A stretch of 64,000 nt of DNA from Stegostoma tigrinum (lineage: Eukaryota). The notes beneath the pieces are model-generated. The model was not told where the DNA came from. It saw only the letters and a list, made by a program, of their open reading frames with translations, and searched no databases. The position numbers and the translations under genes are program-made. Shown one piece after another: positions 9,900-61,800 of this stretch (position 1 is the first letter of the stretch; each line of letters opens with the position of its first letter). The stretch lies in the NCBI RefSeq assembly GCF_030684315.1, contig NC_081369.1, forward strand, positions 51,753,598 through 51,817,597, written 5' to 3'.

Positions 9900-10086
9900 A
9901 GAGATACTGGGAACTGCAGATGCTGGAGAATCCAAGATAATAAAATGTGAGGCTGGATGAACACAGCAGGCCCAGCAGCATCTCAGGAGCATCTGATGAA
10001 GGGTCTAGGCCCGAAACGTCAGCTTTTGTGCTCCTGAGATGCTGCTGGGCCTGCTGTGTTCATCCAGCCTCACATTTTATTATCTT
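9900..10086. mobile_element. Fold-back PLE mini-insertion (family 1) with hammerhead in the loop
   Basis: Perfect 58-bp inverted arms 9934-9991/10029-10086; exact 10-bp TSD agatagtcta (9890-9899/10087-10096). Confidence 0.92.
9993..10020 (+). ncRNA. Minimal type I hammerhead ribozyme motif, intact core
   Basis: CTGATGA-a-ggg-tctagg-ccc-GAA-ACGT-C: conserved core, palindromic ACGT helix III, GUC cleavage triplet. Confidence 0.8.
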
Positions 10087-13000
10087 AGATAGTCTATGTG
10101 AGTGGGCAAAGATCAGGCAGATGGAGTACAATGTTGATAAGTATGAGGTCATCCATCTTGGTAGGAATAATAGCAAAATGGACTATGTTTTAAATGGTAA
10201 AAAATTGCAGCCCACTGCCGTACAGAGGTGTCCTTGTGCATGAATCGCTAAAAGTAGGGTTGCAGGTGCAGCAGGTAATTAAAAAGGCAAATGGCATTTT
10301 GTCGGCCATTGCTAGAGGGATGGAGTTTAAAAACAGGGAGGCTATGCTGCAGCTGCATAGGGTCCTGGTGAGGCCACACTGGAATATTGTGCGCAGCTTT
10401 GGTCTCCTTACTTGAGAAGAGATATACTAGCGCTGGAGGGGGTGCAGAGGAGATTCACTTGGTTAATTCCAGAATTGAGAGGTTGGATTATGAGGAGAGA
10501 CTGAGTAGACTGGGATTATATTCATTGGAATTCAGAAGAATGAGAGGAGATCTTATAGAAACATTCAAGATTATGAAGGGAATAGATAAAGTGGAGGCAG
10601 GGAGCTTGTTTCCGCTAGCAGGTGAAACTAGGACTAGAGAGCATCACCTCAAAATAAAGGGAAGCAGATGTAGGACTGAGGTCAGGAGGACCTTCTTCAC
10701 CAAAGGGTTGTGAATCTGTGGAATTTCCTACCCAGTGAAGCGGTTGAAGCTGCCTCACTGAATGTTTTTAAGGCAAGGCTAGATAAATGTTTGAACAGTA
10801 AAGGAGTTAAGGGTTATGGTGAGTAGGGGGGGTAAGTGGAGCTGAGTCTCAAAAAGATCAGCCATGATCTTATTAAATGACGGGGCAGGCTTAAGGGGAC
10901 AGATGGCCTACTCCTGCTCCTAGTGCTTAGATAAGTTTTTCCTGACAACCAACAATGGATTTATGGTCATGCTTAGATTCTTGATTCCAGATTTTTGTTG
11001 TTGAATTCAAATTTCACCATCTGCCGTAATGGGATTCAAATCTGCAACACCAGAACATTGCCTGTGTCTCTAGATTAACAGACCAGCAATAATACCACTA
11101 GGCCATCAAGCTCTCCATGTGGAATAGTTCTATCACATTCAAGAGATCTCAGTTGCAATGTTGACGTACAAATGCAAGCATGCCTTTAAGAGACTGCTCA
11201 ATACCATGAGCAAAGTGGCCCATGAGCTGTTTAACATTTTTGGTGGCTCCCACAGGCCAACAAAAGAAATTCTCTCTTAGAGCCAGTACACATAAGAATT
11301 CCCCAATCTCTTTGTTTCTGCTGCACCAACATCAGCCTGTTCAACATGAAAACTAGGTAATTTCTCAATCTCCCATGACCAGTGTGCGCCAGTGAGATCT
11401 TTGCTTTTTGGCTGCATCCTCTTAATGGTGGGGCCTCACCAGTATCTCTCACAAGTGATTCTCACACAGTCAACAACTGGCAAATGGTAGGCACACCCCA
11501 GCTACCTGCTGTACACCCAGAGTTAAAATCATATTTTCTTTCTGTGCACAGAGATGAACAGTTTACTTGACATTATTCTCCATGCATTTTCTCGGTTTCA
11601 AAGATCACCAACCAAACTGGGTTATGATATCATCAGTTCAATTCAGTTCAACACAGGCATCCTTCTGTCTGTGCAAAGTGGTGGATTCGGCAGCAAAATA
11701 ATCCTACTTCAGACAGACTGCTTTCATTTAGCACACGTTTGATAAAGGTTGGAGGGTCTTGAATATTTGAACATATGGACTTGCAAAGTTGGAATAGTGT
11801 TCAGCTATTTGAACTCAAGCCATCCATACCTTCCAAAACCATTGTTACTAATCTGCTTGAGTTTCATGTTCCATATTCCCAGCTACCCATAAACTTTTAA
11901 TCCTCTCGCCTAAAAAGAATAGATCAACCTCTCCTTTAAAAATAATCAATAACTCCACTTCTGCATTTTGAGGCAAAGTTCCAAATTCTCACAACCCACT
12001 GGGAGAAACAAAAAGCTTCTTCATCTCTGACTTAAAAAAGTGACTCCTAATTTTAAAATACTGTCTTCAAGTTTTGTTTTGGACTGACCCAGAAGAGGAA
12101 ACATCTTTTCCACATCTAGCTTGTCAAGACTGTTCAGGATCTGATACACTTCAATCAAATCTCACTTCACTCTTCTAAACTCCAATGGAAACAAACCCAA
12201 TGTGTCATAACTACCCTCATAAGGCAACACATTCATTCCAGGTATCAATCTAGTAAACCTCCTGTATATTACCTGCCACATATTTACACCTTTCCTTAAT
12301 TAAGAAGACTAAAACTGCACACGTTATTCAAGATGTGGTCTCACCAATGTCCTGTCTCACTGAAAAGTGACATTCTTACTTTAACTTTCAATTCTTACAA
12401 TAAAGTTTTGCATCCTGTTGGCCTTCTTGATCACAAATTATATCATCATACTAACTTATTCTGATTGAAGTGCTAGAACAGCTGGATTTCTCAAAACCTC
12501 AGATTTCTGCAACTGTTGTCTGTTTAAGTAGCACTTTGTTTTTATTCTTCCTGCCAAAGTAAACAACATTGCACTTTCCCACACTATATTTCATCTGCCA
12601 GATTTTTACCCACTCACTCAACCAACCTATATCCTTCATCATGTCTTCTTCACAACATATGTTCTTACCAATCTCTCATCTAAGCCAGGGATATAAATTA
12701 TAAAAATTTGTGGCACGGCACAGACCCCTCTGGAACTCCATTTGTCACATCCTGCCAACAAGATAAAGCCTAGTTTGGATATACTGACTTTTTTTGCCAG
12801 CAAGTCTATCCATGTTAGTATGTGAACCCCTACACCATGAGCTTTTACTTTCCACAATAACCTTTTATGAGATACCTTATCAAATACCTCCTTGAAATTC
12901 AAGTCCAGTATATCTACAGATTTCTCTTTACCCACTGTCGCAGCACATGCGGCTCCTTCAAAGAAGTGTAAAGAATTAGCTAAACATGATTTCCCTTTCA

Positions 13001-13249
13001 TAAAACCATGCTGCATCTTGCTGATTACCCTGAGCTTTTCCCATTGGCTGAATGTAACCTCTTTTATATCAATTATAATACCTCCCCAAAAGCAGTCAAA
13101 CTGACTGGCTTATAGTTTCCTATTTCCTGCCTCCCTACTCTGTTGAAAAAAGTTATTATCATTGCTTCATTCCAGTCTGATGAAACCTTTCCTGGATCTA
13201 AGAAGTTTTGGAAAATTGACACCAATACCTTGTTCATCATCATTAATTT

Positions 13250-13512
13250 CTGCTGCTGGCGTTTGGCAAGGTCAGCTTTTCTTTCTCCCTGGCATATTAT
13301 CCTAACAGGCATTCCCTCATTCTAAGCTCCATCTCTGCCTATCTGCTAACTGCCTATTGCTCCCTCTTGTCAGCAGTAATATTACTTTTTCCTAGCTACT
13401 ATCAGTTCTGAAGAAGGGCCAATGAACTCAGAACATTAACTCAATTTTTCCATCTCCATAAATGCTTCCAGACCGGCTGATATGCTCCAGCAAATTCTAT
13501 TTGTCTGATTTT
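13250..13512 (+). mobile_element. Penelope pLTR fragment (family 2) with degenerate hammerhead, inserted in the old CR1
   Basis: 'ttttcctagctactatcagttctgaagaagggccaatgaactcagaacattaactc' matches 9587-9642. Confidence 0.7.
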
Positions 13513-14197
13513 CTAACTCATTTGCCACCCTCGGATGCAATCTGTCTGGACCCAGGGTCTTGTTAGCCTCCAGCTTCATCACTTTGCTCAGTAAAACATC
13601 CTTAGTAAGTACAATATCATTAAGCTTCTCTCTCTGTTCCACAATTTACATAATTGCTGGGATGCTCTGTAGTGAGTACAGAGGCAAAATATTTTGTTCA
13701 TTTCATCTGCTGTTTCCTTGTTATCTATTCTTAATTTGCTATCTGACTCTCTAGAGGACACTCACTTATTCCTTTTCCTTTTTAAATTCCTCTGGAAACT
13801 CTTGTGGTCTGATTTTACATTTCTAACTAGCTTTCCCACATACCGTAATTACTTTATCCCGATAAACCTTTTAGCCATTCTCTGCCTTTCTTTATGTTCA
13901 GACCTACTACCTATCTATGGACAATTTTGTACTTTTTCTTTAAGTTTGATACTCTCCTTAACTCCTTTAGTTAACATTAGATGGCGGGTTCTCTCTTTAG
14001 AATTTCTTAATAGTAGAAATATACTTACACTGAGTAAACTACATATAAACTTCAATCACATTGAAATTGCTGCTGCATAGGGGTGCCCCCACTCTGAGAA
14101 CATAAATTAATCCTGTCACATTACAGAATACTAAATCTAATATAATCTGTTCTCTGATTAGTGCCAAAACTTGCTATTCTCAGAAGCTAACATGAAA

Positions 14198-14322
14198 TGG
14201 ATAAGCATATGGATAATGATGGGATAGTGTAGGGGGAGGGGCTTAGATTAGTTCACAGGTCAGCGCAACTTCGAGGGCCGAAGGGCCGGTTCTGCGCTGT
14301 ACTGTTCTATGTTCTATGTTCT
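14198..14322 (+). mobile_element. Short CR1 3'-end insertion
   Basis: Similar to 7416-7543 ('ggataagcatatgga...gagggccgaagggcc...tgttctatgttctatgttct'); aaat at both ends. Confidence 0.85.
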
Positions 14323-14739
14323 AAATCATTCTCTGAAATCCTCATCCAGGCTAGTAATGCCATCTCATTCTTCGAGTTTACATGTCACTGAAAGTAGCCA
14401 TGATTACTGCCTTAACTTTATCAAAGTACCCAATGTCTCCTCTTTCTGTTTCATTGTTACTGGTGGGGGCCTGTAGACCACTGTCACTAGTAAACTTCTT
14501 TTCTGTAATATTCCTCATTGCCAACCAGATGGACCCACTCAATCTCTAACTACTGCACAAATGTCACTCTTGATAAGTAATGCTACCCCTCCACCATTAC
14601 TTCCCTTTATTCTTATTGAGTATTGAGTATCTCTCAATATGCAGACACACTCCTTGTCACTCTGCAGCCACATCTCCATAACAGCTATGACATTATATGC
14701 TATGAGAGCTATGAGAGGCAGGATCAATCAGGCATGCTG

Positions 14740-14930
14740 CATGTCAAGCTACCAGGTGTCTTTGTGCAGGGTAAAGCCAAAAGCACGTGTTCAATTCCCA
14801 CACCAGCTGAGGCTATCTTCTCAACCCCTCCTGAGGTGTGGAGATTTGCAAATTAACCTAACACCAGTCATCTCTCTCCAATGATAGAGCAGCACTATGG
14901 TCCACTTGAACGGTGGTGACTTGACTTTAC
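14740..14930 (+). mobile_element. tRNA-derived SINE (family C)
   Basis: B-box-like 'gtgttcaattcccacaccagctgagg'; reverse complement of copies at 620, 37580 and 56450. Confidence 0.6.
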
Positions 14931-15330
14931 TGATAGGGTGAGAAAGTGGAGTCACGGTGGAAAATCAGTCACAATTGTTTTAAATGACAGGACAGGCTCC
15001 AGGTTTGGATGGCCAACTCCCGCTCTTATTTTGTTTCATCCTTGACTTCTCAAATACATTGTTGATGCAAAAACATTTGCAGAATTTCAGTTAGGGGCAA
15101 CCTGTTCTGGCTGGGACTAAGGGCTATTGTTGGATACAAAACACAATAAGGCTGACTCCTGGCAGCGCTCGATGCTGACACTGAGTGACAAAATGGAAAA
15201 CACAAAGTGTTCCACTCCTCAACACCAACGTGTTTCACCTTGCAAAGCACAACATTTACCCACAAAAGGAGAAGTGGATGAACTTTAGCATTATCAGCTA
15301 ATGGAATCCCCTGGGAGTGTGGCCGCGAAA

Positions 15331-15368
15331 GCGTGTGTGCGCATGTGTGCATGTGTGTGTGTGTGTGC
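15331..15368. repeat. Imperfect (TG)n microsatellite
   Basis: gcgtgtgtgcgcatgtgtgcatgtgtgtgtgtgtgtgc. Confidence 0.9.
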
Positions 15369-15543
15369 TTTTTGTATGTGAGGAAGGATAGGTTTTTCTC
15401 AGGCTCCAAGAAAGATTTTCTGAAGGCAGGCATTGCAACCAATAAATTATTATTCCAAGGCAAACATTTTTTGTAATGAACAATATTAAAAATCCTGAAA
15501 ACATCAAGTGCTTGTGCGTTCAAGCTCACTTTTAGGATTATGA

Positions 15544-15668
15544 TGTGAAAGTGCTGGTGTTAGACTGAGGTAGGCAAAGTCTGAAACCTCAAAGGGGCTT
15601 CACTCCAAAAGTTTGTGATTTCAAATAAACCTGTTAGCCTATAACCTGGTGTTGTGTGACTTCTGACT
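15544..15668. mobile_element. PLE mini-insertion (family 3), partly inverted
   Basis: Matches 43905-44005; 14-bp TSD ttttaggattatga/ttttagaattatga (15530-15543/15669-15682). Confidence 0.75.
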
Positions 15669-24355: not shown

Positions 24356-24539
24356 ATCTAGAAATGTGAAAAGTAAATAAAAAGCCTAAGATAGCCCCGA
24401 AGATTTCAATGTTTAGATGAGAAGCTTGCCAGTAAGTGGTGAGCGCTTTATATTAATGTATTTACACCTCGTTATAATCATTACTGCATATCATGCAGCA
24501 TTGAGGAAAATGGGAAGCTCAAGTATAAACAATGTTACT

Positions 24540-24667: not shown

Positions 24668-25050
24668 AATCTCCCCTCCCCCCACTGCAACCCAATCCCG
24701 CCCAGCTCGTCCTCGCCTGCCTAACCTGCTGTTCCTCTCACGCATCCCCTCCTCCCACCTCAAGCCACACCTCCATTTCCTACCTACCAACCTCATCCTG
24801 CCCCTTTGACCTGTCCGTCCTCCCCAGACTGACCTATCCCCTCCCCACCTCCCCGCCAATACTCTCCTCTCCAACTATCTTCTCCTCTATCCATCTTCAG
24901 TGCGCCTCCCCCTCTCTCCATATTTATTTCAGAATCCTCTCTCCATCCCCCTTTTCTGATGAAGGGTCTAGGCCCGAAACAGCAGCTTTTGTGCTCTTAA
25001 GATGCTGTTTGTTCTGCTGTGTTCATCCAGCTCCACACTTTTTTATCTCA
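24668..25050 (+). mobile_element. Penelope pLTR fragment (family 1) with hammerhead motif at 24956-24983
   Basis: Colinear with 40830-41209; CTGATGAagggtctaggcccGAAACAGC with mutated cleavage triplet. Confidence 0.85.
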
Positions 25051-25927: not shown

Positions 25928-26060
25928 AGTGATAATGGGAACTGCAGATGCTGGAGAATCCAAGGTAACAAAATGTGAGCCTGGATGAACACAGCAGGCC
26001 CAGCAGCATCTCAGAAGCACAAAAGCTGACGTTTCGGGCCTAGACCCTTCATCAGAGAGG
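25928..26060 (-). mobile_element. PLE mini-insertion (family 1) ending just past the hammerhead
   Basis: Near-identical to the arm at 9900-9991, plus the hammerhead. Confidence 0.88.
26028..26055 (-). ncRNA. Minimal hammerhead ribozyme motif, intact core
   Basis: Minus strand: ctct-CTGATGA-a-ggg-tctagg-ccc-GAA-ACGT-C-ag. Confidence 0.8.
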
Positions 26061-27127: not shown

Positions 27128-27331
27128 TTGAACACAACAGGCCAAGCAGCATCTTAGGAGCACAAAAGCTTACGTTTCGGGCCTAGACACTTCAAAAGGA
27201 ATCTGGTGAAGGGTCTAGGCCTGAAATGTCAGCTTTTGTGCTCTTAAGGTGCTGCTTGGCCTGCTGTCTTCATCCAGCTCTACACTTTGTTATCTCGGAT
27301 TCTCCAGCATCTGCAGTTCCCATTATCTCTC
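27128..27331. mobile_element. Fold-back PLE mini-insertion (family 1) with two back-to-back degenerate hammerheads
   Basis: Inverted arms about ~27200; 14-bp TSD atatcaaagctttg/atatcaaggctttg (27114-27127/27332-27345). Confidence 0.9.
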
Positions 27332-27520: not shown

Positions 27521-27731
27521 TAAAAACCAAAGGAACTGCAGATGCTGTAAATCTGGAACAAAAACAAAGTTGCTGGAAAAGCTCAGCAGGTCTGGCAGCA
27601 TCTGTGAAGAAAAGAAATCAGACTTAACGTTTCGGGTCCAGTGACCCTTCCACAGAATGGTTCTGAAACTGACCTAAAACATTCACTCTGATTTTTTTCT
27701 TCACAGAGGCTGCCAGACCTGCTGACTTTTT
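27521..27731. mobile_element. Fold-back PLE mini-insertion (family 2)
   Basis: cagcaggtctggcagcatctgtgaaga / tcttcacagaggctgccagacctgctg arms; hammerhead-like motif on minus 27626-27655; 12-bp TSD acaaaagaaaca/acaaaagcaaca (27509-27520/27732-27743). Confidence 0.88.
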
Positions 27732-27744: not shown

Positions 27745-28630
27745 TGCCTGTGTATGATGGAACAGCACTCATTCTGGCAAATTCGGAGTATTCCTTCATA
27801 CTCCTGACTTGGGCCTTGTAGGTGATGAAAAGACTTGGAGGGCTAAGAGTTGAGTCATTGCTGCAAAATTCCCAGCCTGTGACTTGCTGTTGTAGGCACA
27901 GTATTGATGTGGTTAATTTAGTTCATTGCCTGAACAATGGTAACGCACAGGATGTTGGTCACAAGAGATTCAGTAGTGGTAATGGCATCAAATACAGAAA
28001 AGCAATTGACAGGTTCTCTGATGTTGGAAATTGACTGCCATTTGTGTGACACAAATATTACTCACCAATTTTCAGCCCAAAACTGGATATTGGCCAGGTC
28101 AGAGGTAGTAGGAACTGTAGGACGGTAGGAATTTTCTGAAGAAGGGTCTCGACCCGAAACGTCAGCTTTCCTGCTCCTCTGATGCTGCTTGGCCTGCTGT
28201 GTTCATCCAATTTACACCTTGTTATCTCACATTGTCCAAGTCATACTACATTGATGTATGGACTGTTTCAGTATCTAGTAAAGCTTGAATATTCATAAAC
28301 ATAGCAAAATCATCAGTGAAAACCCTACTTCTGACTTTATGATGGAGGGAAAGTCATTGATGAAGAAGTGGAAAATGTTTGCACCCAGGACACTGCCCTG
28401 AGGACCTGCTGCCAAGATGTCTAGAGCTGAGATAACTGGTGTCCAATAACCATCAGCATCTTCCTTGGTGCTAGCCATGATTCTAATCATCAGATAGTTT
28501 TCCATTTGACTCACATTGACTCCGGTTTTGCTATGGTTCCTCGATGCCACGCTCAGTTGAATGCATCCTCGAAGTAAAAGGCAATCATTCTCACCTCCCC
28601 TCGCGAATTGAATTCTTTTTTTCCATATGA
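27745..28630 (-). mobile_element. L2/CR1-group LINE RT fragment
   Basis: AGPQGSVLGANIFHFFINDFPSIIKSEVG; homologous to 59440-60190 on the opposite strand. Confidence 0.8.
28101..28228 (+). mobile_element. PLE mini-insertion (family 1 variant) with intact hammerhead at 28136-28163
   Basis: CTGAAGA-a-gggt-ctcg-accc-GAA-ACGT-C; short inverted 5' piece; diverged 14-bp TSD atattggccaggtc/acattgtccaagtc. Confidence 0.85.
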
Positions 28631-28749: not shown

Positions 28750-29310
28750 GAAAGATGGCTCAGTAGTTAGCACAGCTGCCTCACAGTGCCATGGGCCCAG
28801 CTTTGATTGCACCCTCAGTCTGTGTGGAGTTTGCACATTCTCCCTGTGCCTGCTTGTGTTTCTGCCAGGTGCTCCATTTACCTCCCACAGTCCAAATAAA
28901 AACCAAAAGAACTACGGATACGGTAAATCAGGAACAAAAACAAACTAGATGGAAAAGTTCAGCAGGTCTGGCAGCACCTGTGGAGGAGAACGTTTCTCAG
29001 TTCTGTTGAAGGGTCACCGGACCCAAAATGTTAACTCTGTTTTCTCCTCCACAGATGCTGCCAGACCTGCTGAGCTTTACCAGCAACTTTGTTTTTGTCC
29101 CACGGTCCAAAGGTACTCAGGATAGGTGGACTGGCCTTGCTAAATTGTCCATAGTGTCGACGGATGTGCAGGCTAAGTGGTTTAGCCTTGGAAATGCAGG
29201 GCTACAAAGATAAGATAGAGGAGTGGGTCTGGGTGGAATGCTCTTTGGGGGATTGGTGTGGATTCTGTAGGCTATATGGTCTGCTGCCACACTGTTAGGA
29301 TTCTATGATC
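28750..29310 (+). mobile_element. HE1-type SINE interrupted by a PLE hairpin
   Basis: A box tggctcagtag, 'gagtttgcacattctccc', core resumes at 29098. Confidence 0.85.
28897..29097. mobile_element. Fold-back PLE mini-insertion (family 2)
   Basis: Inverted arms; degenerate hammerhead at ~29003-29032; 14-bp TSD tcccacagtccaaa/tcccacggtccaaa (28883-28896/29098-29111). Confidence 0.9.
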
Positions 29311-29455: not shown

Positions 29456-29585
29456 AAAACTAAAAGAGCTGCAGATGCTGCAATTCAGAGACAAAACAAA
29501 AAGGAATTGCTGGCAAAACTCAATAGGTCTGGCAGCATCTGTGGAGAGAAAGCAGAATTAACATTTCAGTTCCAGTGACCAGCCT
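29456..29585 (-). mobile_element. PLE mini-insertion (family 2), single arm
   Basis: 'ggtctggcagcatctgtggagagaaagcagaattaacatttcagttccagtgacc' ends within the hammerhead. Confidence 0.75.
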
Positions 29586-30054: not shown

Positions 30055-30155
30055 ATCGCTTCTGAAGACGGGTCACTGGACCCGAAACATTAACTCTGCT
30101 TCCTCTCCGCAGATGCTGCCAGAAATGCTGAGCTTTTTCCAGCACTTTTCTGTTT
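30055..30155 (+). mobile_element. PLE mini-insertion (family 2) beginning at the hammerhead (30062-30091)
   Basis: CTGAAGA-c-gggtc-actg-gaccc-GAA-ACAT-T-aact; ctgaact repeated at both flanks. Confidence 0.8.
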
Positions 30156-30889
30156 ATACACCTGAACTCCTGACTTGTTAAACAAATATTAAAAGATGTT
30201 CCTGATAGTTGAGTAGTCTTATAATGTGTGGGTGTTCTTGTGCAATGGTGCATGAGCCTTGTTCTGGCCTGGGAGTGGATGAAAATGTTTTCTCATGTTA
30301 CTTGCTGATATGGTGGTTTGTCTTCTACAGTATGAAAGAGAAGGTGTGTTCCAACACAATACATGGTGAGGCAGGAGCCATATGCTGTCATTGACAATGA
30401 CTATCCCTGCTGTTTGACCACTCAGCTCCAGAGCTCCAGACAGGGCCAGGTTATGACAAGCTGACACCGAAAGATATGTCAAGCTGAAGAGTTCATTCAA
30501 CATTATCAATTAGATATTGAGTAGTATCAAATCATTTTTGGATCCTAATTCCACCTAAATGAAACATCTGTCTTCGAGGTTGAATGCACATACAAAGGCT
30601 ACGTCAGTCATAAAAGTTAGAGTTTAATTCTTGATTTGCTTACCCATCTTCATACTGATGACAGTGAAGGAAAGTGTATAAGGAAAGAATCTGGGATTAT
30701 TCAGGAGAAAATGGGGGAGTTGGTGTTTGTGCTCATGCTGGAACAACACAAGGGACAACAGGATGCAGGACAATCTTTTGGGCATGCACAAAGCTTTGCA
30801 AAACACCCTCACTTCATGAAACAGATCCAAGAAATTTTTGATGATATTGAACTCAAAGCAAAAGAAAACTTGCTTGATTCAGACTACAA

Positions 30890-32297
30890 ATCCTCCGACG
30901 AACCAAAGTCCCCACCTGTTTCAAGAAGACCACCATTATCCCTGTACCAGGAAAACACATACAGTGTGCCTTAATGAGTACTGCCCAGTGGCCTTGACTT
31001 CAATTATCATGAAGTGTTTGGAGAGGCTGGTTCTGGCCCATATCAAGCCCAGTCTCCCAGACCACCTCCATCCCTTACAGTTTGGCTCCTGACAAACAGA
31101 TCCACAGAGGATGCCATAACTCCATCCCTGCACTCACCCCTGGAACATTTGAACAACAAAGTCAGACAGACAAAGTCAGACGTAGGCCCAAAACATCAGC
31201 TTGTGTTCTCTTAAGATGCTGCTTGGCCTGCTGTGTTCATCCAGCTCCACACTTTGTTATCTCACATTCTCCAGCATCTGCAGTTCCAATTACCCCTGAA
31301 CTTGGTCTTAGCTCCGCCTTCTGCAACTGGATCCTCAGCTTCTACCCATATGCCGCAATTAGTGAGGATAGGTAACTGCACCTCCTCCACAATAACACTC
31401 GACACTGGAGTCCCCCACCCCCCCCCCACCAAGGATGCGTCCTCAGTCCCCTACTGTATGACGGTACATCTACAACGGCGTTGCCAAATTCCAAACAAAC
31501 ACCATCTACATTTAACATCACTGTAGTGAGATGGATATCTAACAATGATGCTTTAAAATACAGAAGGGAGACAGAGAGCTTGGTGACTTGGTGCAGTGAA
31601 AACAATCTGTCTCTCAACTTCGGCCCAAGAAGGGATGAGAAGAAGCCCCCATCTACATCAACGGAACTGAGGTTGATAGGGTGAAGAGCATCAAATTCTT
31701 CAGAGTGACAATAACCAACAACCCGTCCTAGACTTCCCATGTAGATGTAACAGTCAAGAAGGCACAACAACACCTCTTATTCCACAGGCAGTTCTGGGGA
31801 TTTGGTGTGTCCATAAGGCCCCTCACCAACTTCTAAAGATACACCATTGAAAGCATACTGTCCAGGTGTATAACGGCCTGGTATGGCAACTACTCTGCTC
31901 AGGACCTTCAGAAATTATAGAAGGTGGTATGCACAGCCCAGACCATCATGGAAAACAACCTTCTATCCATGGACTCTATTTAATATGTTCGCTGCCGCAG
32001 AAAAGCAGCGAACATCAAAGATCCATCGCACCCTGGTAATGGCTTCCTACAACCTCTTCCATCTGGCAGAAGAAACAGAAATCTGAACACTCACACAAGC
32101 AGGTTCAGGAACAGTTTCATTCCAGCTGTTATCAGAATGTTGAATGGACTCTAGTGTCAAATAATGTAATCTGCAATATAACCTGAATGCCTCTGAATCT
32201 TTTTGATCTGTACATCCTTTGCTTGCTGTGTTCTGCCTGTACTGCTCGTAAACAAAGCTTTTCATTGTATTTCGATACACATGACAATAAAATCAAA
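30890..32297 (+). mobile_element. Rex1/Babar non-LTR retrotransposon 3' fragment, decayed
   Basis: VPTCFKKTTIIPVP, CLNEYCPVALTSIIMKCLERLVL, YRRETESLVTWCSENNLSLN, IESILSRCITAWYGN; tail 'cttttcattgtatttcgatacacatgacaataaa'. Confidence 0.85.
31182..31297 (+). mobile_element. PLE mini-insertion (family 1) within Rex1
   Basis: 'taggcccaaaacatcagc...gatgctgcttggcctgctgtgttcatccagctccacactttgttatctc...gcatctgcagttcc'. Confidence 0.8.
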
Positions 32298-40579: not shown

Positions 40580-41278
40580 ACAAAAAATAAAGAAATGCAG
40601 ATGCTGAAAACAAAAACAAATATTGCTGGAGAAACTCAGCAGGTCTGGCAGCTTCTGTGGAGAGGAAGGAACATTTTGGATCCCCCTCCCATTCCTTAGA
40701 TGACATGTCCATCATGGACCTCTTGCAGTGCCACAATGATGCCACCCGAAGGTTGCAGGAACAGCAACTCATATTCCGCTTGGGAACCCTGCAGCCCAAT
40801 GGCATCAATGTGGACTTCACAAGCTTCAAACTCTCCCCTTCCCCCACTGCATCCCAAAACCAGTCCAGCTCATCCCTGCCTCCCTAACCTGTTCTTCCTC
40901 TCACCTATCCCCTCTTCCCACCTCAAGCCGCACCTCCATTTCCTACCTACTAACCTCATCCCGCCTCTTTGACCTGTCCATCCTCCCTGGACTGACCTAA
41001 CCCCTCCCTACCTCCCCACCTATACTCTCCTCTCCACCTATCTTCTTTTCTCTCCATCTTCGGTCCGCCTCCCCCATCTCCCTATTTATTCCAGTTCCCT
41101 CTCCCCATTCCCCCTCTCTGATGAAGGGTCTAGGCCTGAAATATCAGCTTTTGTGCTCCTGAGATGCTGCTTGGCCTGCTGTGTTCATCCAACTCCACAC
41201 TTTGTTATCTTGGATCCAGAGACCTTTCTTCAGAGAACAGGCTTGCTACATTTTTTCTAGCAATTTCTCTTTTCGTTA
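40580..41278. mobile_element. Family 2 PLE hairpin with a family 1 Penelope fragment (40684-41209, +) inserted at its centre
   Basis: Inner piece encodes SPSHSLDDMSIMDLLQCHNDATRRLQEQQLIFRLGTLQPNGINVDF plus pLTR; ttggatcc repeated at 40676-40683/41210-41217. Confidence 0.85.
41118..41145 (+). ncRNA. Minimal hammerhead ribozyme motif
   Basis: ct-CTGATGA-a-ggg-tctagg-cct-GAA-ATAT-C-ag; palindromic ATAT, AUC triplet. Confidence 0.7.
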
Positions 41279-41783
41279 CGTCAATGTTAGCCCAGACATT
41301 GAAGGGTCTGTGACCATAATATAGGTACATTCCAAGAGCTGTAATAAAAAAAATCTTTTGAATCATTCAGTACTGCGTTGTCTACATCTAGTTCACATGT
41401 TATAGGAGCTAACATAAATATTGCCCCTTCAGGTACAAATACCAGCTGGAGTCAAAAGCCCACAACATAATGACAGGATATGCACCTTATTTGTAGACTG
41501 CAGATCATGTCCTCACAAGAGAAAGTCTAAGATTCCCCTGAAAGCGAAATGGGAAATTCCCTGCCTACTGCTATTCATTTTTGATTCAGCTTTTGTGTCC
41601 CTCAAAAATCACATAGATCTGTAGTTAAACACTTTAACTGTACTGCTTGAGGGAAGTGTTGCCTTGAGCAGCTGTAGCTAGGATTCCAACATAACCAAAC
41701 TGAAATAAATGAAAAGTATTTCACTTTGGTTATCTTTGTAAAAATGGGGAAGCCACGTGTAAAAAGACCAAAGAAGAAAGTTG

Positions 41784-42043
41784 AGGTAACAAGGTGTAAG
41801 GCTGGATGGACACAGCAGGCCAAGCAGCATCAGAGGAGCAGGAAAGCTGATGTTTCGGGGCCTAGACTCTTCTCCAGAATTTCTGAAGAAGGGCCTAGAC
41901 CGAAGCATCAGCTTTCCTGCTCCTATGATGCTCCTTGGCCTGCTGTGGTCATCCAGCTCTACACTTTGTCATCTCTGATTCTTCAGCATCTGCAGTTCCC
42001 ACTATCTCTGATTCTTCAGCATCTGCAGTTCCCACTATCTCTG
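41784..42043. mobile_element. Fold-back PLE mini-insertion (family 1 variant) with terminal 33-bp tandem duplication
   Basis: Exact 13-bp TSD aagaagaaagttg (41771-41783/42044-42056); two back-to-back degenerate hammerheads around 41880. Confidence 0.92.
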
Positions 42044-43720
42044 AAGAAGAAAGTTGCCAAGTTTTCGAAGAGGAAGGAGAAACACAGTAAATGAGCAAGT
42101 AATGAGTAATGAAAAATCTTGAGTCTTGAGCTCCTGCAAATTGTATGATGGTTGAGAAGTTCCACAAATATCTGCACTTTGTTTGCAGGATAAGGCACAA
42201 TGCAATTTAGTTTGACTTCATGACAACAAGAACGCGTAGAGGAGGAAGGTACAGAGAGGGAAAGTTCAGAAGATCAAAAAACATAATAGTTTGAGTAAAT
42301 GGGGGTCAGATCTTGTTGGTAATGACAAGATTGATCAATGCTAGTGGCCGGAGGTGAAGCATTGATCAACAAGACACTAATTACTAATAATAATTTTGAA
42401 ATTATGGGAAGTTATAATTTACTCTTCCCAGATAATTTATGTTGACATATTTTACATTAGGTCAGTATTTGTTCTTAGTCTGTTTGTTTGGGTGCATTCA
42501 GAAACTACCCTGCATTTACACTGCTTGATTAATCTGAAAATAGTCCTTGTATATAGAAATATAATCAGTGCTGCGTTCAAGTAATGTCTCACAACCATGT
42601 ACACCACTGAATCATGATTAATGAGGCTAATTATCCTGTCTGAAAGTGGAAAGATTTTAGCCATTCTTTTAAACGTTCCATGAAAAATTCTTTGTAGCCG
42701 ACTAAAATAATGCTATTTCTGCACCAGACAGACAGAAAGAGATTTGGTTTCCTGTTTAATTGTTATCTATTCCAAAGGATATTGGTCAGCAGCCAACGCT
42801 CCCAAAAAAAGGTAGAGAAAGTAATTGTTACAATTTCTTTTACAACACCAAGTTTATATAACATTTATGCAATGTTTACACTTACTAGAACCAGAGCAAG
42901 ATTTTACTGGCATTATATTATAGAATAACATCTTTTCAAATGTATTTCTCATCATTTTTATCTATAACACGGGATTTGTTGAACTTTCTGATGTTAAATG
43001 CAAACAGAAAATGCTGCAGAAACTCAATGGCTCCGGCAGCATCTGTGAAGAAAGAAACAAATTTAACAATGCAAGTCTAACATAACACATCTTCATAATC
43101 AAGATATTCTGTTTGTATTTCAGATCTCCAGAATTTATATTAATTTGATTTTATTTGAGTTTGCTGATGTCTCTAGCTAAAATTGCTTAATTGCTAAAAT
43201 CTAATATTCGTATAAATCTATACTGGATTGAAACTTTGAACATTGAATTTTCTTTTAGTAATGTAGTTATTGTCTAGTTGTAAAAACAAAAGTGAAAGTT
43301 TGGAATTGAAAGCAATGTTTGAAAAGCAAGGCTTGGAAAGCAATGATAATGCACAACAGATTACTCCAGCTTTAAATGAGGAAGACAACTTTGAGTAAAA
43401 CATTATGCCAAAGCAATGAATGAGCTTCAGTCAATATACTGAAAAAAACTATTCATTTGTGGGAATTAGATTTGGATTCATACCAGCAGCCAGGTAGAAA
43501 TGTCAACAGCTACAATAGAATAATAGCTATTCATGTCATTGTGCAACTAGCCCCGTATCATGTTTGCATCTGCACTGCTGTGTCTAAGTTTGGAGACAGG
43601 AGCTTCCAATACAGTGCATGCTTTGAAGTATGGGTGAACAGTCCATATACATAAAGTACAAAAGTTTCATAAAGGAAGCTAACATGGATGTTTACTTTTC
43701 CATGAATGACAAATGATTGG

Positions 43721-43791: not shown

Positions 43792-44005
43792 AAAAGCCAG
43801 AAGTCACGCTACACCATGTTATAATCCAATAGGTTTATTTAAAATCATAAGCTTTCGGAACGTGGCCCCTTCTCAGGCAACTTCACCTGACGAAGGATTA
43901 GCGCTCTGAAAGTTTGTGATTTCAAATAAACCTGTTGGACTATAACCTGGTGTCGTGTGACTTCTGGCTTTGTCTACCATAGTCCAACACCAGCACCTCC
44001 ACATC
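43792..44005. mobile_element. Fold-back PLE mini-insertion (family 3) with two back-to-back hammerhead motifs
   Basis: aagccagaagtcac..taggtttattt / aaataaacctg..gtgacttctggctt arms; plus-strand motif tcac-CTGACGA-a-gga-ttagcgc-tct-GAA-AGTT-T-gtga (43883-43919). Confidence 0.85.
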
Positions 44006-46070: not shown

Positions 46071-46974
46071 TGTAGACAGTTTCTCTCTATTCACTCTGCT
46101 TTAACTTCACATGACTAAAGACCTCTGTCACATCTGCTCTCAACTTTCTTTTGCCATACATCACATTAGGTCAATTTCACTCAACCAGGTCAATGATTTC
46201 TCATTGCTTGTCAAGAGCAGCAACACAACATACTGTCACTGGAATAATAATGTGCTTACTGTATTTAATTGAGCCACATAAATCTATAAAATAAACTTAA
46301 TAGGTACAATGCAACAATTAAAATTATTTGTCTGTAAACAATGCTGAGATGCAATTGAACCAGAGATTTTTTGGAAGAATCTACTCTGATTTTGGCACAA
46401 TGTCAATTTGGAAGAGTTTCATGGAAGTCACAAACCATGGAGATTTTCATCCCACGAGTCTCTGCCAGTCACTTCATTAAGTATGTACCTGGTTCCATCG
46501 CACCATTCTCACAAAATATGACACTCAACAGCGGCAGAAATGGTCACCAGTGGTGAGCCGAAGGGTGTTAATTCCTTGGACATCAAAATTAATCCCCAGC
46601 TGTACATGTAGCAGCCAGGCCAGTGTGGTGCCCATGATCTAGAAGAATGTGCAGCAAAGTCAGAAGCAGCTCAATAGCCATATCTACTCTGAAAGAGTAA
46701 CTACCCTCTTCCCTCTGGTGCTACTACACACTCTAATTCTGCCATTGCATCCACCTGCTTGCAAGGTCTACCACAGCTCATGTGCATACATGTCAGAAGC
46801 AGTAATGATGCTTATATGTATATAAATGGTTAAATTTTAGGTTGACTGAACTTCTTAAAGCTGTGTCAAAAAGATTTTTCTCCCTTCGCATTTTCTTCTT
46901 TTACAACATTCTTAATGGTGGCAAGCTTCCTGAGAGTTTTAAAGTGTTTTCTAAAACTCTCAAGAATCTTACCA

Positions 46975-47400
46975 ACATTCGGAACAAAGCAGCCCCTTGA
47001 TTATCACCATATCCATAAACATCTACGCCCTCCAATACCAACCCCCACTAGCTAGAAGATACATTGCAGAAGTTTACCAAAAGATCCTTAGGCAGCATCT
47101 TCCAAACTCATTGTCACTTCCATCTAGAAGGACAAGGGCAGCACATTAATGGGAACATCATTACCTGCAAGTTCCAAGCCACTCACCATCTTGACTTGGA
47201 AATATATTTCCATTCCTTCATTGTCTCTCGATCAAAATCCTGGAATTCCCTCCCTCAGGACATTGTAGATCTATCTACAGCACATGGACTGCAGTTATTC
47301 AAGAAGGCAGCTCATCACCACCTTCTCAAGGACAACTAGAGTGAGACAATAAATGCAAGCCAGCCAGTGGACACCACAGCTCTCAAAAAAATAAAAAGAA
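46975..47400 (+). mobile_element. L2/CR1-group LINE 3' end
   Basis: HSFIVSRSKSWNSLP..GLQLFKKAAHHHLLKDN* and tail 'gacaataaatgc'. Confidence 0.8.
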
Positions 47401-47419
47401 ATATTTTCAGCTAATCAGA

Positions 47420-49069: not shown

Positions 49070-49312
49070 ACTAAAATACTGTAAATACTGGAGATCTGAA
49101 ATAAACACAGAAAATGCTGGAGAAACTCAGCAGGTCTGCCAGCAGCTGTGGAGGAAGAAACAGAATTTATGTTCCCAGTCTAGAATGATTTCAGGACTTT
49201 TGAGGACTTTCTGAAGATGTGTCATATCAGACTCATGCCATTTTAACTCTGCTTCTTTCTCCACAGATGCTGTCACATCCATTGAGTTTTTCCAGCACTT
49301 TCTTTTTATTTC
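49070..49312. mobile_element. Old fold-back PLE mini-insertion (family 2)
   Basis: tgctggagaaactcagcagg..cagcagctgtggagg / ctccacagatgctg..gagtttttccagca inverted arms. Confidence 0.75.
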
Positions 49313-56449: not shown

Positions 56450-56625
56450 TAGGAGCGGCTGTCTCATTAGAGAGAAACAACCAGGAGTGGTTTACCCTGG
56501 GGTCACCATATCTCAGATGAGAGGAGAGGTCAAAAAGTAGAGTCCTTCATGGCGACCTCAGCCAGTGTGGGAATCGAGCCCATGTTGTTGGCACCACAAG
56601 CTGGCCATCCGAGCTAACTGATTCC
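56450..56625 (-). mobile_element. tRNA-derived SINE (family C)
   Basis: 'ctcattagagagaaac...ggggtcaccatatctcag...acctcagccagtgtgggaatcgagccc'. Confidence 0.7.
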
Positions 56626-57724
56626 CTACTATAGGCAAAATACCTGGTGAACACCTAAAAGTATTTAAACTTTATTTTTCCAAACATTTCACAAGCTAGG
56701 ATGCAACTACAAAGCACAATTGCTTAATTGAAAGTCATAAAAGGCCTGCGATAACTGGATTGATATAAATAATCATGTTACATTTGGAACCCGCTCCGTG
56801 TGACTTTACAAGAAATTTTCGAGAAATGAGGTCAGGGAAATTTGCAACAAATCCGACTGTTGCATCACCAATAAAGTGTATTTATCAAAGATACACAGAG
56901 ATAGCAGCTGAATTAACAAAAGGAAATATTGATTCCACAGAAGTCAACCTCAAAATTTGAAATCCTAGTTTATGAGCAACATGAACAGGTTATTGGAGCA
57001 TGTTATCATAAAAGTACAGATGCAAGATATCTGTAATAAAATACAAAAATTCTGGAAACTCTCAGCAAGATTGGAAAGAGTGAGTAAAAAAGGGTTAATA
57101 TTTCAGTTGATGACCTCTCCACAGAACAAGTTTCTGTTTCTATTTCAGGTTACTAAGTAAACTTTAAACAGGCTTGCTTATTCCTGGACAAACCTGTAAT
57201 TCATTTATCAGGATTTAATCATTGTTCTCTAACTATACAAGTAAGACTGCCAACAATCCTCTCAGTCTGAAATTAGTTTATTACAGGAATGTTGCAGTGC
57301 CAGAAAATAGCCAAGTTTAGAGCAGTCTCACATTGAAGCATCAGTGGCAAATAAAGGTCACAAGTTGGTGAACAGGACAACATGATATTTATCCCAGTAG
57401 TAGGAAGAACCTGTGAATAGATATGTGATATAAATGAGTTAGTTCAGAGTTTTGCCATTGTTTACATTTCATTTATGTTTTTGGGATACTAACAAGCTGG
57501 TTGTAACAGTTACACAGGATGCTTTACAGAAGCTCTGTAATTTTCAGTGCTTGCGTGTACAATTCTCGCATTTTTTTTCTCAAAATAAAACTCAATTTAC
57601 AAGGCAAACATCAATTGTGTTTGACAAACATTGTACATTTGATGCCAACATTCTAAGTGACAAAAGTCTAATCTGTCTATCCAAGCTCTTCTTAAAATCG
57701 AAAATTCCTGATTGTGTACATCGT

Positions 57725-58185
57725 GACATAGAAACTTATAAGATAGGAGCAGGTAGAGGCCAATCAGATCTTCGAGCCTGCTCCATTATTCTTCATGATC
57801 ATGGCTGATCATGCAACTCAATAGCCTAATCCTGCTTTCTCCCCATAACCTTGATCCCATACACCCTAAGTGCTCTATCTAGCTTCCTCTTGAATATATT
57901 CAATGTTTTGGCATCAACTACTTCCTATGGTAATGAATTCCACAGGGTCACCACTCTTAGGGTGAAGAAATGTCTCCTCATCTCCATCCTAAATGGTCTA
58001 CTCCCGAATCCTCATACTGTGACCTCTGGTTCTGGACACATCCACAATCAGGAACATCCTCCCTAGATCCACCCCATCTAGTCCTGTTAGAATGTTATAA
58101 GTGTCTATGAGATCCCCCCCTCAATCATCTGAACTCAAGCGAAAACAATCCTAACATATTCAATCTTTCAATCTCTCCTCATAGT
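57725..58185 (-). mobile_element. CR1 3' fragment
   Basis: 'catagaaacttataagataggagcaggtagaggcca...gatcatggctgatc...gaattccacagggtcaccactc'. Confidence 0.85.
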
Positions 58186-58502
58186 GTTTTGAATATTTGT
58201 ATTTCCTTATGCTACGATGTTGCTTGCAATAAATGCTGGTTGAGAGAGAGAAGCCTACATCCCATGAATGAATAAAAGGGTCGCAGGCACCATCCCTGGA
58301 TATGTCCTCCACACCTAGACTCAGCAGGGCTGGTAGCATATTGATATAGAATGCCAGGCAGACCTAAAAAGGAGGTGGCTTGGTATAGCTATAATACAGA
58401 AGACTTGCATGCCAACTGGCAGAAACAGCATGCAACTAACAGAGCTCAGTGATCCCACAACCCAACAGGCTTGGTCTAAGCTGTACAGCCCTACCACACC
58501 CA

Positions 58503-59390
58503 ATAAGACTGTAAGACAATAAGAAACAGGAACATGATTAGGCTATTCAGGACCTCAAGCCTACTCCAGCAGTCAAAACAATCATGGCTAATCTGATATT
58601 CCTTATTTCTGCTTTTCTGCCCTTTCCCCACAACCCTTGATTTCCCTGATGATTAAGAATCTATCTATTTCAGCCTTAGATATACAAAAGGACTCTAGCC
58701 CCACAGCTCTGGATGGCAAGAAGCTTCAAAGGCTCACAGCCTCTGAGAGAAGAGATCCCTTCTCATCTCAGTCTTCAACAGAACAGACTAGAATTGCCAT
58801 TTATGTTCAAAAAAAATGTGAAGCGTGTTTAAGTCACCTTACCACTGCAGAATAACAGACTAATAGCAGAAAGCATAGATATGAAAAAAAAATCAAGATG
58901 AAATCCATTTTAGTTTAATTCCTGACTCCTGGGCTCAGGTAAAGACAGTACCGCTGCAAGACTGCCATGCCGGGCCACTGGAATGCCGGCCATCCATGAT
59001 GGGCTGCTGGAAACTCACGCCACAAGACTCCACAGAAGCTTCCCAATGGACACAGCTGGAAAGACCATGAAAAAACAGGAAAAGTGGCTAGAGTGGATGA
59101 GCCCTCGGTAACAGGAACTCAGACGCTGCCTACTCCGCCGCAGCCATCTTGCTGCAAAAATTGCCATCCCTTAATTCTGAGACTATGTCCTCTGGTCATA
59201 GACTCCACTATGAGGGGAAACATCCTCTCAGCATCTACCCTCTCAAGGCCATTAAAAATCCTTTTATGTCTCAATGAGATCACCTCTTATTCTTCTAAAC
59301 TTCAGTGGGGAGAGTCCCAACCTGTTTAACATTTGCATATAAGACAATCCTTCAAGACCAGGGATCATCCTCTTGAACCTTTGCACACAT
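58503..59390 (-). mobile_element. CR1 3' fragment split by an insertion at 58778-59155
   Basis: RFKRMIPGLEGLSY..LNRLGLSPLKFRRIRGDLIET; 'catctcagtcttcaa' resumes as 'aaattgccatcccttaattctgagac'. Confidence 0.85.
58778..59155 (-). mobile_element. Short non-autonomous retroelement (YY1-type 5' end, Rex1-like tail)
   Basis: Minus strand starts gcagcAAGATGGCtgcggcggagtagg and ends 'taaacacgcttcacattttttt..ggcaattctagtctgttctg'; boundaries defined by the interrupted CR1. Confidence 0.6.
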
Positions 59391-59439
59391 TTGCACAGAA
59401 GTGACAATGGACAATGTGTCTCAATTTCCTTAGCATCAC

Positions 59440-60190
59440 TGATGCCAGCCAAAGTGATTTAAGAAAGGTCTGAAGACACAATGTTGACAATATTCTGGCA
59501 ATAGCTTGCTCTTGAATGTTTCATCCAGCAGAATGAAGGAAGGTATTGCAAACAGTGCTACCAAGCAGCACTTGCAAAAGAACAGCCTTGTCATTGACGC
59601 TCGGTTTGGGCCTGCCAGTGCCACTCAGCTCCTGACTTATTACAGCCTTGCTGTAAACATAAGCTAAAGATCAGAACTTCAGATGTAAGGTAAAAGTGGC
59701 AGCTCTTGACCTCAACCTAAGCTGCAGGTCATTTCTGAAGAAGTTCCTCAGGGTCATATCCTAGATGTCCCTAGAAATCTTCAGCTCCTTCATCAATAAC
59801 TTTCCTTCCATCAGTCGGGAAGCAGGATGTTTGCTGATGATTGCACGATGTGCAGCACCATTCAAGATTCTTCACCTAGTAAAGTACCCGCTCAAATTGA
59901 GCAAGACCAGACCAAGATCCAGGCCTGCGTTGGTAAGGATGTGAGAGTAACATTTACACGACACAAGTTGGCAATAACTATCTCCAACAGAGACAGAAAT
60001 TAACAATTTCCCCTTGACATTCAATGGCATGACCATCGTTGAATCACTAACTATCAACATCCTGGGGGTTACCATTGATGAGAAACTGAGCTGGACAAAC
60101 TGTATAAATATATTGTGATTACAGGAACAGGTCAGAACTCTGCAGTGAGAAACTCACTGCCTGACCACCACCTACAAGGCTCAAGTGAAG
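59440..60190 (+). mobile_element. L2/CR1-group LINE RT fragment
   Basis: VPQG.., FINNFPSI, MFADDCT (~59828), TINILGVTIDEKLSW. Confidence 0.8.
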
Positions 60191-60689
60191 GCAATAGGTG
60201 GGGATATATGAAGTTGTCACTAATTTGGCACTGGGGCTATAAAGGGCTATGGGAATGATTGTGGTTATAGTGGGTATGAAGCATCATGGGAAAGGGGCAA
60301 ATTAATATAGAATGCATGCAGGATATGGGGGATCATGGGAATTGAATAAATGGGCAAAGGGTAGATAGTAGGTTCAAGCAGTACTAATGTACAGGTTTGC
60401 CTAAGTATGTTTAAACCTGCTGAAGTAATGAACTCCCAAGGCTTTCAGTCTTTTACACCATCATTACACAGGTGATCTTCCACACCTTCCCAGACATTAA
60501 CCCTGCAACTGTGATACCACACAGACAAAGCCTCGATTTAACATCTCAAACAAAAAACTGCTCCTCTGACAATGCAGCACTTCTTCAGTATTACAATAGG
60601 ATGTCAGCTTAAACTTTGTGTTGGAGAATTAAAGTGAAATACAGAACCGTTGCAAATATCTTTTATGTTAATGGTTTAATGAAGATCAG

Positions 60690-61800
60690 TAGCTGGGTAG
60701 CAGTTGGAGTTGTTGGTCAATTTGCCAAGTTGACTGGTTTTCATATGAACGTTTTGTCTCCCTTCTCGGTGGCATTGTCAATGCTGTATAGCCTCCATTG
60801 AAGTGCTGTTATTCTGTCCGGCTCTGAACTTATATGGTCCAGTCTGTCATGGTGGGCAGAGATAATTAGAACTGCAGATGCTGGAGAATCCAACATAACA
60901 AAGTGTGTAGCTGGATGAACACAGCAGGCCAAGCAGCATCTCAGGAGCACAAAAGCTGACGTTTCGGGCCTAGATCCTTCATCATTTCGACATGTTTGTT
61001 AATTGCATTGGTGGTTGAATACTGGGGCCTCCAGGAATTCGTGTACTTGTCTTTATGTCGCTTGCCCTTGTACTGAAAATTCGTCCCAGTCAAACTGATG
61101 TCCTTCCATGTCAGAGTGTATTGAAATGAAGGAGAATTGATTGTGCTGTTTTGCTGTGAATTGGTGTTCACGTATCCTGGTGGCAGGTTTCCTGCCTGTC
61201 TGTCCTATGTAATGTTTCTCACGTTGCTGCATGGTATTTTGGGTGTCACATTTGCCCTGCTCATTGTGGGTATGGGGTCTTTCATCTTTGAGAGTAACTG
61301 GTGAAGTGTGGCTGTTGGTTTGTATACTATCCTTATTTCAAGAGGTTGTAGACATCTTGTAATCATTTGTGATTTGTTTCTAACATATGAGAGGTTGGCC
61401 AGTGTGTTGGGGTGTACAGTGTCTTCTTGGTGTTGTTTGCTTGCCAGGCATAAGTGGCTGAAGCTATTAGGATAACCATTGTTTGCAGAGAATCTACATT
61501 GGTGTTCCTCTTTGCTCTTGCGCAGCTCCAGGGTGTTGCAGTGAGTTATCGTTTGTTTTGTCAGAGCCTTGACACAGCTCTGATTGTGGATGCCAGTGTG
61601 GTTACTGTTGTAATTCAGGATTTGTTCTCTGTGTGTGTAGTCTTTCTCTATTTGCTGGTAAGGAATTCCCCTTTGTCCATTTGTTCTACCATTATGTGTA
61701 GAAACGGGAGTTCCCTGGTGAACCTGGTCCCAGTGAATATGCTGTTAATAGAGTGGTGTGTTTCTTCTAACTCTGTAAGATACTTTACAATAGATTGACA
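60690..61800 (-). mobile_element. Penelope-like element (family 4): RT C-terminus, GIY-YIG and pLTR, decayed
   Basis: LEETHHSINSIFTGTRFTRE.LPFL; TGRKPATRIREHQ at ~61165-61205; degenerate hammerhead on minus ~60747-60780 (ttgacaatgccaccgagaagggagacaaaacgttc). Confidence 0.8.
60858..60984 (-). mobile_element. PLE mini-insertion (family 1) inside the family 4 PLE, truncated at the hammerhead
   Basis: Near-identical to 25928-26055; ends at 'gacgtttcgggcctagatccttcatca'. Confidence 0.88.

Follow-up and report, generated by a model that had tools for sequence, protein, structure and literature searches.

Background

Penelope-like elements (PLEs) that encode an endonuclease (EN+ PLEs) leave complex insertions, in which an inverted, 5'-truncated copy lies head to head with its partner, a tail of 30-40 bp is found at one end only, the junctions are palindromic and the target-site duplications (TSDs) vary in length. 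The available parts of the papers that describe this arrangement as an inverted pseudo-long terminal repeat (pLTR) plus tail (PMC3846280, PMC8557442, PMC2377424) link it to elements with a C-terminal GIY-YIG endonuclease and a linker of the Neptune/Nematis type. Here we describe short insertions that agree with the published ones in all these respects, in a 64,000-nucleotide stretch of the Stegostoma tigrinum genome (RefSeq assembly GCF_030684315.1, contig NC_081369.1, positions 51,753,598 to 51,817,597 of the forward strand; hereafter the window, with coordinates counted from its first letter). They are typified by a hairpin at 9900-10086, belong to three PLE families (families 1-3) and were the subject of an earlier note on the same stretch.

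PLEs also carry minimal type I hammerhead ribozymes, and those described by Cervera and de la Pena (2014; PMC4209133) resemble the motif found here in their core, in an extra base after A9 and in a palindromic minimal helix III. The available part of that paper already describes motif pairs, located on opposite strands and separated by 100-700 bp, together with numerous truncated single copies, and states that in vivo evidence is absent, whereas the genomic 5' ends analyzed here pile up at the predicted cut. Another relative is the anole element PAc, studied in vitro (Frangieh et al. 2024; PMC11167929, in its available part), where two internal start sites of the reverse transcriptase (RT) bound the tail, much like the arm ends reported below. 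In that system both target strands are cut and extended, a dimer is predicted, the hammerhead is assisted by protein and the start sites show no strand preference. PAc belongs to the Poseidon clade, whereas the family-1 parent appears to be of Neptune type. A precedent for ribozyme-defined 5' ends is R2 (PMC3774820, in its available part), in which the self-cleavage site likewise coincides with the 5' ends of genomic copies; unlike the elements studied here, R2 has a ribozyme resembling that of hepatitis delta virus, inserts site-specifically and leaves full-length copies instead of stumps.

Architecture of the insertions

We surveyed an unselected genome sample of 1.514 Mb, made up of 26 blocks that were picked by their position (one comprising the window plus 200 kb of neighboring sequence, the other 25 each 50 kb long), numbering positions from the first C of the hammerhead core as 0 and counting an arm wherever it had at least 80% identity and reached +70. 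Family 1 yielded 277 arms in 199 inserts, comprising 77 head-to-head pairs, no tail-to-tail pair, one tandem and 121 single arms. The layout that the earlier note had described as common to all three families extends to family 2 (15 head-to-head pairs, none tail-to-tail) and family 3 (2 and 0). The family-1 head-to-head inserts are 119-2853 bp long, the short ones, or minis, spanning 119-276 bp, and 56 of the 77 reach our TSD score threshold of 10, which was attained by 0 of 300 random intervals; the duplications measure 10-18 bp with a mode of 14-15.

The 3' ends of the arms fall at two sites, namely site 1 at about +92 and site 2 at about +128, the latter with a tail of about 35 nt. One tail arm is combined with one site-1 arm in 74 of the 75 classifiable pairs (p=2e-21 against an even split; 2 pairs were unclassified). 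The arm lengths are also coupled, with both arms short in 51 pairs, both long in 22 and only 4 mixed (73/77 alike; p=5e-15). From the 43 family-1 minis in 1.25 Mb we estimate about 110,000 genome-wide (95% range 80,000-148,000). An inverted 5'-truncated head-to-head copy, a tail at one end and TSDs of variable length are the marks of PLE complex insertions, and the hairpin structure itself is this known product, published as inverted pLTR plus tail. Unlike the insertions in the available parts of PMC3846280, PMC8557442 and PMC2377424, most pairs here have no intervening open reading frame (ORF), as the 51 pairs with two short arms illustrate, and in the same parts we did not find the strict restriction of the tail to one arm, the coupling of arm lengths and the fixed 5' stops that we counted. 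A literature search that left subscription papers and supplements outside its coverage retrieved nothing on these minis or on PLE copies that end at a hammerhead cut, nor on the strict tail asymmetry, the arm-length coupling or the pile-up at the cut.

The parent element

The arms, which had been read as PLE terminal segments, are all 3' ends of PLEs. Upstream of the family-1 ends lies a pyrimidine-rich 3' untranslated region (UTR), followed by a reading frame, which in copy L100 combines an RT-like frame with YIDN, a CX4CX2C linker and a GIY-YIG domain with an internal cysteine pair (frame 1176-1688). The Pfam GIY-YIG profile matches L100 with E=0.002, below its curated cut-off, and the RT was recognized from motifs by eye, its frame giving no Pfam or PDB sequence match. 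L100 thus shows both a C-terminal GIY-YIG with a cysteine pair between GIY and YIG and a CX2-5CxxC linker, and the latter, between RT and endonuclease, marks the Neptune and Nematis clades according to the available part of Craig 2021 (PMC8557442). Judged by sequence features, the family-1 parent appears to be an EN+ PLE of Neptune type, the clade name resting on the linker motif. Family-2 ends in the window adjoin decayed frames homologous to L100. A Pfam search of four decayed or N-terminal frames gave no match, and there is no intact full-length element among the 31 loci with sequence beyond the tail, in which the longest frame has 399 aa. An open N-terminal part of the family-1 ORF of this length (L229:925-2121) begins after the tail, includes a short Pro/Thr/Asp-rich repeat, ends by a jump to the hammerhead and has no Pfam match.

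Hairpins are built anew at insertion

The estimated 110,000 family-1 minis, their coupled arm lengths and one exact palindromic centre (+28 to +31) common to 709 loci might suggest that the hairpin is a self-propagating, non-autonomous unit, retrozyme- or MITE-like (miniature inverted-repeat transposable element), that is copied whole. This was one of two options left by the earlier note; we consider it largely refuted and very improbable, and the evidence supports the other, a stereotyped product of PLE insertion. Most junctions differ, with 47 distinct breakpoint pairs in 53 minis. Even the 30 best matches to the 9900 element, which as a set are biased towards the junction of that element, comprise 18 junction strings, of which the most frequent is present in both subfamily marker classes (4 and 4); two of the 30, L026 and L027, have common flanks and represent one duplicated locus. 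The outer ends of the inserts vary along with their TSDs of 10-18 bp, an identical layout extends to inserts of 2.85 kb that include coding sequence, and the shared-centre class has no catalytic core.

The proposal that unlinked copies be compared for shared junctions thus had a mixed outcome: the junctions mostly differ, yet the 709 loci do have one exact centre, albeit in three subfamily haplotypes with matching arms. Both arms match at 14 of the first 20 such loci, and these 14 fall into three haplotypes (7, 4 and 3); the other 6 have a short or altered arm. Of the 20, 18 have exactly one tail, and 12 reach a TSD score of 10 or more. Because the shared junctions are found in three subfamily haplotypes with both arms matching, they are recurrent rather than inherited.

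The agreement between the two arms of an insert is close. They carry the same subfamily marker in 30 of the 30 best matches to the 9900 element, and diverge by 4.9% within an insert compared with 9.7% between inserts. Minor variants present in both arms number 94, against a permutation maximum of 56 (52 usable of the 56 TSD-bearing inserts), and the long coding inserts and the minis carry common haplotypes. Given that the junctions vary, and that the shared ones recur across subfamilies with their arms matching, the hairpins are built anew at each insertion, each from the RNA of one subfamily. Later gene conversion between arms could add to the match, yet not recreate the haplotypes of the long copies. 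The stumps are likely to be dead ends.

MITEs have fixed termini with terminal inverted repeats, a uniform length and a fixed TSD length, and the asymmetric ends, mini lengths of 119-276 bp and TSDs of 10-18 bp rule out this class. Animal non-LTR (long terminal repeat) retrozymes, as described in the available parts of PMC7229834 and Li et al. (bioRxiv 10.64898/2026.07.22.740005), resemble the minis in being non-coding and pLTR-derived and in having a type I hammerhead and long TSDs, but form head-to-tail tandems with a hammerhead in each unit, whereas the minis are head to head and mostly without an intact core. Expression as small circular RNA is a further defining trait of these retrozymes. 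Their head-to-head organization excludes the window minis from the non-LTR retrozymes.

A two-primer model for the hairpins

We regard it as probable that the hairpins are the shortest PLE insertion products, in which both ends of a staggered target cut prime cDNAs on one RNA, and many of these cDNAs run off at the RNA start or at a ribozyme cut. The arms are 3' ends of RT plus GIY-YIG elements, placed head to head between TSDs of 10-18 bp, with one arm of a pair extending to site 1 (about +92) and its partner, which includes the tail, to site 2 (+128). By comparison with the available results on the anole element (Frangieh et al. 2024), sites 1 and 2 might represent two internal RT start sites. 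Each nicked target strand would then prime at one of them on the same RNA, and the two cDNAs would be joined via microhomology or short filler. Short arms end at two fixed places, -4 to -6 and +28, of which the former may be the transcript start and the latter the 5' end generated when the hammerhead cleaves. Two short arms would result from priming at the 5' pLTR copy of the RNA, and two long ones from priming at the 3' copy.

In L1 twin priming both target ends also prime and the product is inverted and TSD-flanked, with the second primer copying an upstream, non-overlapping part of the RNA. The present arms differ in that both copy the same 3' segment from two fixed sites.

The matching arms, the one-sided tail and the perfect palindromes could also be accounted for by a single primed cDNA that folds back and copies itself, the copy being trimmed at site 1 by the endonuclease. 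Such self-priming was proposed for PLE palindromes by Arkhipova 2013 (PMC3846280), and Craig 2021 (PMC8557442) ascribed the tail to endonuclease resolution, both in the available parts of these papers. Fold-back predicts, however, that the tail arm always reaches furthest 5'. In the 74 pairs it is the site-1 arm that extends further, by more than 10 nt, in 27 cases and the tail arm in 19, and in 28 the two end within 10 nt of each other; some pairs, such as those at 15544 and 28101 in the window, hardly overlap. As neither arm contains the other in 27 of 74 pairs, two cDNAs primed from both target ends are favored, and fold-back appears improbable. The joints of these pairs show microhomology in 31 cases, are blunt in 6 and contain filler in 37.

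The 5' ends point to a common end of the template. Their density rises from 0.07 per nt upstream of -10 to 4.3 per nt at -9 to +9, and 27 of the 37 exact ends upstream of the core lie at -4 to -6. In Drosophila Penelope the transcript start lies in the pLTR, and by analogy the common template end is probably the transcript start in the upstream pLTR. A smooth continuum of lengths was dropped, the 5' ends being bimodal with a wall at -9 to +9, and an apparent truncation hotspot at -284 proved to be an artefact of an indel in the reference copy.

The sharp wall and the coupled arm lengths would also be expected if the hairpins were built anew from a short non-coding pLTR transcript, running from about -5 to beyond the tail, that was produced by solo copies and mobilized in trans in the manner of a short interspersed nuclear element (SINE). 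Internal RT starts would give no 3' transduction from such a template, and tandem non-coding hammerhead units of 290-420 bp do exist (see below). Nevertheless, the common haplotypes include no mini-only one, and the stumps are devoid of the sequence beyond the tail that the anole element requires for activity. Beyond-tail sequence is moreover rare, with at least 218 first-look candidates against at least 7,015 for the 3' UTR. We consider this source of template unlikely, and retain two cDNAs primed on one PLE RNA as the preferred reading.

5' ends at the predicted hammerhead cut

With a strict descriptor of the minimal hammerhead we obtained 5 sites in the window, where shuffled sequence would give 0.02, and 113 in the 1.514 Mb sample, with the conserved core, helix II and palindromic helix III of the minimal type I class. 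Among these 113 are minimal hammerheads of additional families, which differ from the three named ones in helix II sequence. An Rfam scan gave no hammerhead family at E<=1 and only sub-threshold microRNA and snoRNA matches. Among the 53 family-1 minis a strict hammerhead is kept in 17, and the largest counted shared-junction class has no catalytic core, so that the term ribozyme hairpins, used previously, is an overstatement.

The descriptor places the predicted cleavage between +27 and +28. When arms whose two upstream bases both depart from the element were counted genome-wide by exact match, 5' ends at +28 numbered 3,494, compared with 681 at +26, 699 at +29 and 584 at +30. At 709 loci an exact palindrome has its centre on +28 to +31, whereas the palindrome 5 nt upstream serves as the centre at 50. 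In the unselected sample, the 5' end was called at +28 for 11 out of 220 arms, with 8 of these calls clear by eye, versus 0.93 per neighboring position. Further, 4 of 15 short inserts that abut their TSDs and have no inverted arm start at +28 (p=1e-5; hand tally), a figure unaffected by arm-to-arm microhomology. Direct repeats also resume at +28 (L271), and there are 10 exact tail-to-+28 joins genome-wide (an uncontrolled count). At G000:C6:50040195-50040396, we observed a direct dimer of the +28 to +128 segment between 11-bp TSD copies. The dimer and the joins are as expected if the RT jumps off a cleaved RNA end or reads a small circle.

The genomic ends make it fairly likely, in our judgement, that the hammerhead cleaves in vivo. 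Several observations weigh against this or against the wider two-primer model. Of the first 100 rows at +28, about 60 are the palindromic junction (20 loci being counted on both strands) and another 11 are compatible with a 3-nt microhomology (hand tally), while the remaining 29%, about 1,000 rows, exceed the neighboring counts only about 1.5-fold. The 101 arms of family 2, which are older, show no pile-up at the predicted cut, and the 18 arms of family 3 are too few for a peak. Helix I of family 1 has only 2 bp, and an alternative helix, pairing positions 0-5 with 24-29, could make the RT pause near +28. Ends at -4 to -6 are preceded by no excess of G (13/35, p=0.38), which gives no support to a capped start. 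As many as 121 of the 199 inserts appear single-armed, and 48 of the 70 young ones among these are without a TSD. According to the available part of PMC11167929, hammerhead mutants still insert in vitro and no RNA-seq reads end at the cut.

An alternative for the +28 peak, which leaves the rest of the two-primer model untouched, is an RT pause or repair hotspot at the 4-nt palindrome, with no hammerhead cutting in vivo. It fits the majority of +28 rows being microhomology junctions, the missing family-2 peak and the end of the alternative helix at +29. Against it, the palindrome at +23 to +26, although no longer than this one, is used 14-fold less often, starts at +28 are also seen in inserts that have no inverted arm, direct repeats resume there (as in L271 and the 10 exact joins), and +30 is not elevated. 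We hold a pause or hotspot to be a possible but distinctly less probable explanation than cleavage.

Tandem retrozyme-like units

Most copies that continue for about 117 nt beyond the tail then jump, from a single fixed point, to a position in the 3' UTR that varies between copies. The result is a tandem array whose units, about 290-420 bp long, each contain an intact hammerhead, the tail and the approximately 117 nt that follow it. L218:1172-4221 consists of 9.9 copies of 309 bp, and L219 is a head-to-head array of 330-bp units with a TSD; further loci with tandem units are L231, L224 and L220. Exact matches number 22 for one jump junction and 6 for one exact form that continues into the ORF. 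In most loci examined, the return from the ORF start to the 3' UTR departs from a constant position, suggesting a third entry site for the RT. The tandem units at L218, L219 and L231 fit the definition of a non-LTR retrozyme better than the hairpins do.

Elements of the window

The nine elements and five single arms listed in the earlier note lie where it had placed them, and seven of the nine fold as long hairpins (those at 9900, 27128, 27521, 28897, 41784, 43792 and 49070; -85 to -155 kcal/mol). The description as full or partial hairpins fails for 15544 and 28101, which give no such fold (-29 and -34 kcal/mol) because their two arms barely overlap. TSDs of 10-15 bp were likewise recovered for seven of the nine. 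Three lengths are borne out by paralogous empty sites, namely 10 nt at 9900 (1 site), 15 nt at 27128 (1) and 14 nt at 28897 (46), and an empty-site search found no paired paralogue for the remaining six flanks. No TSD was recovered within 25 nt of slack on either side at 43792, at 49070 or at the five single arms. The statement that most elements carry a hammerhead stands only if decayed or cut-off cores are counted, strict motifs being present in 3 of the 14 features (9900, 28101 and 25928).

The 9900 element consists of a family-1 tail arm (9900-9991, minus strand; PLE positions +128 to +36) and a site-1 arm (9992-10086, plus strand; -1 to about +93) with a strict minimal hammerhead at 9993-10020, for which the descriptor predicts a cut between 10020 and 10021. 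The exact 10-nt TSD copies are at 9890-9899 and 10087-10096. The hairpin splits a decayed remnant in 9700-10300, which we take to be the RT of a long interspersed nuclear element (LINE). The other family-1 hairpins are at 27128-27331 (a short arm plus a tail arm; core mutated, TSD 14/15) and at 41784-42043 (tail tandemly duplicated; cores decayed, TSD 13/13), and at 28101-28228 a plus-strand site-1 arm with a strict hammerhead at 28136 is preceded by a short inverted tail stub (TSD 11/13). Family 2 contributes the hairpins at 27521-27731 (TSD 11/12) and 28897-29097 (TSD 13/14), both with mutated cores, and an old related hairpin at 49070-49312. Family 3 is represented by the two-armed insert at 15544-15668, which has no hammerhead core (TSD 13/14), and the hairpin at 43792-44005, in which it is decayed. 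An additional family-2-related two-armed insert at 42990-43146, absent from the earlier note, has a weak TSD (13/16).

The single arms of family 1 include two tail arms on the minus strand, at 25928-26060 (-5 to +128; strict hammerhead at 26055) and 60858-60984 (starting at +1), and a plus-strand arm at 31182-31299 that starts at +13 and so has no 5' core. Those of family 2 are at 29456-29580 (minus strand, decayed) and 30055-30157 (plus strand, near-intact core).

Longer copies of the same ends, left out of the earlier note, are also present. Family-1 3' fragments lie at 40672-41215 (plus strand), with the end of the endonuclease ORF, the pyrimidine-rich 3' UTR and a strict hammerhead at 41118, and at 1988-2553 (minus strand) and 24668-25048 (plus strand). 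A family-2 3' fragment at 4465-5262 (minus strand) has coding remains and a strict hammerhead at 4571. A decayed PLE at 5915-9739 (plus strand), with RT remains at 5939-6071 and from 7544, heads for a family-2 end at 9600-9739 and may be a single element continuous over this span, interrupted by a LINE RT frame (about 6072-7447). In 5915-7447 a stop-free frame of 511 codons runs from about 50 PLE RT codons directly into this inserted LINE RT, which is presumably CR1-like. Elsewhere in the window, a 179-codon frame at 61208-61744 (minus strand) resembles by eye the C-terminal part of another PLE-like ORF and has no Pfam match, and short inverted repeats at 46909-46984 and 41688-41736 match none of the three families.

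Implications

For annotation, the estimated 110,000 family-1 hairpins are better treated as PLE stumps than as MITEs, retrozymes or microRNA precursors, the last being a concern because Rfam gave sub-threshold microRNA matches. For the existing in vitro system the counts predict that each target end uses one start site, that both arms derive from a single RNA and that the cDNA runs off at the cut. The origin of PLE inverted repeats and the in vivo role of minimal hammerheads are both posed as questions in the available parts of the PLE literature, and the present counts bear on both. It may be, and we see the balance as about even, that the stumps constitute a genome-wide fossil record, in which the PLE hammerhead cuts RNA inside the germline transposition complex and one RNA primes both target ends from two fixed start sites. 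If true, this would explain the inverted pLTR and the one-sided tail of these elements together.

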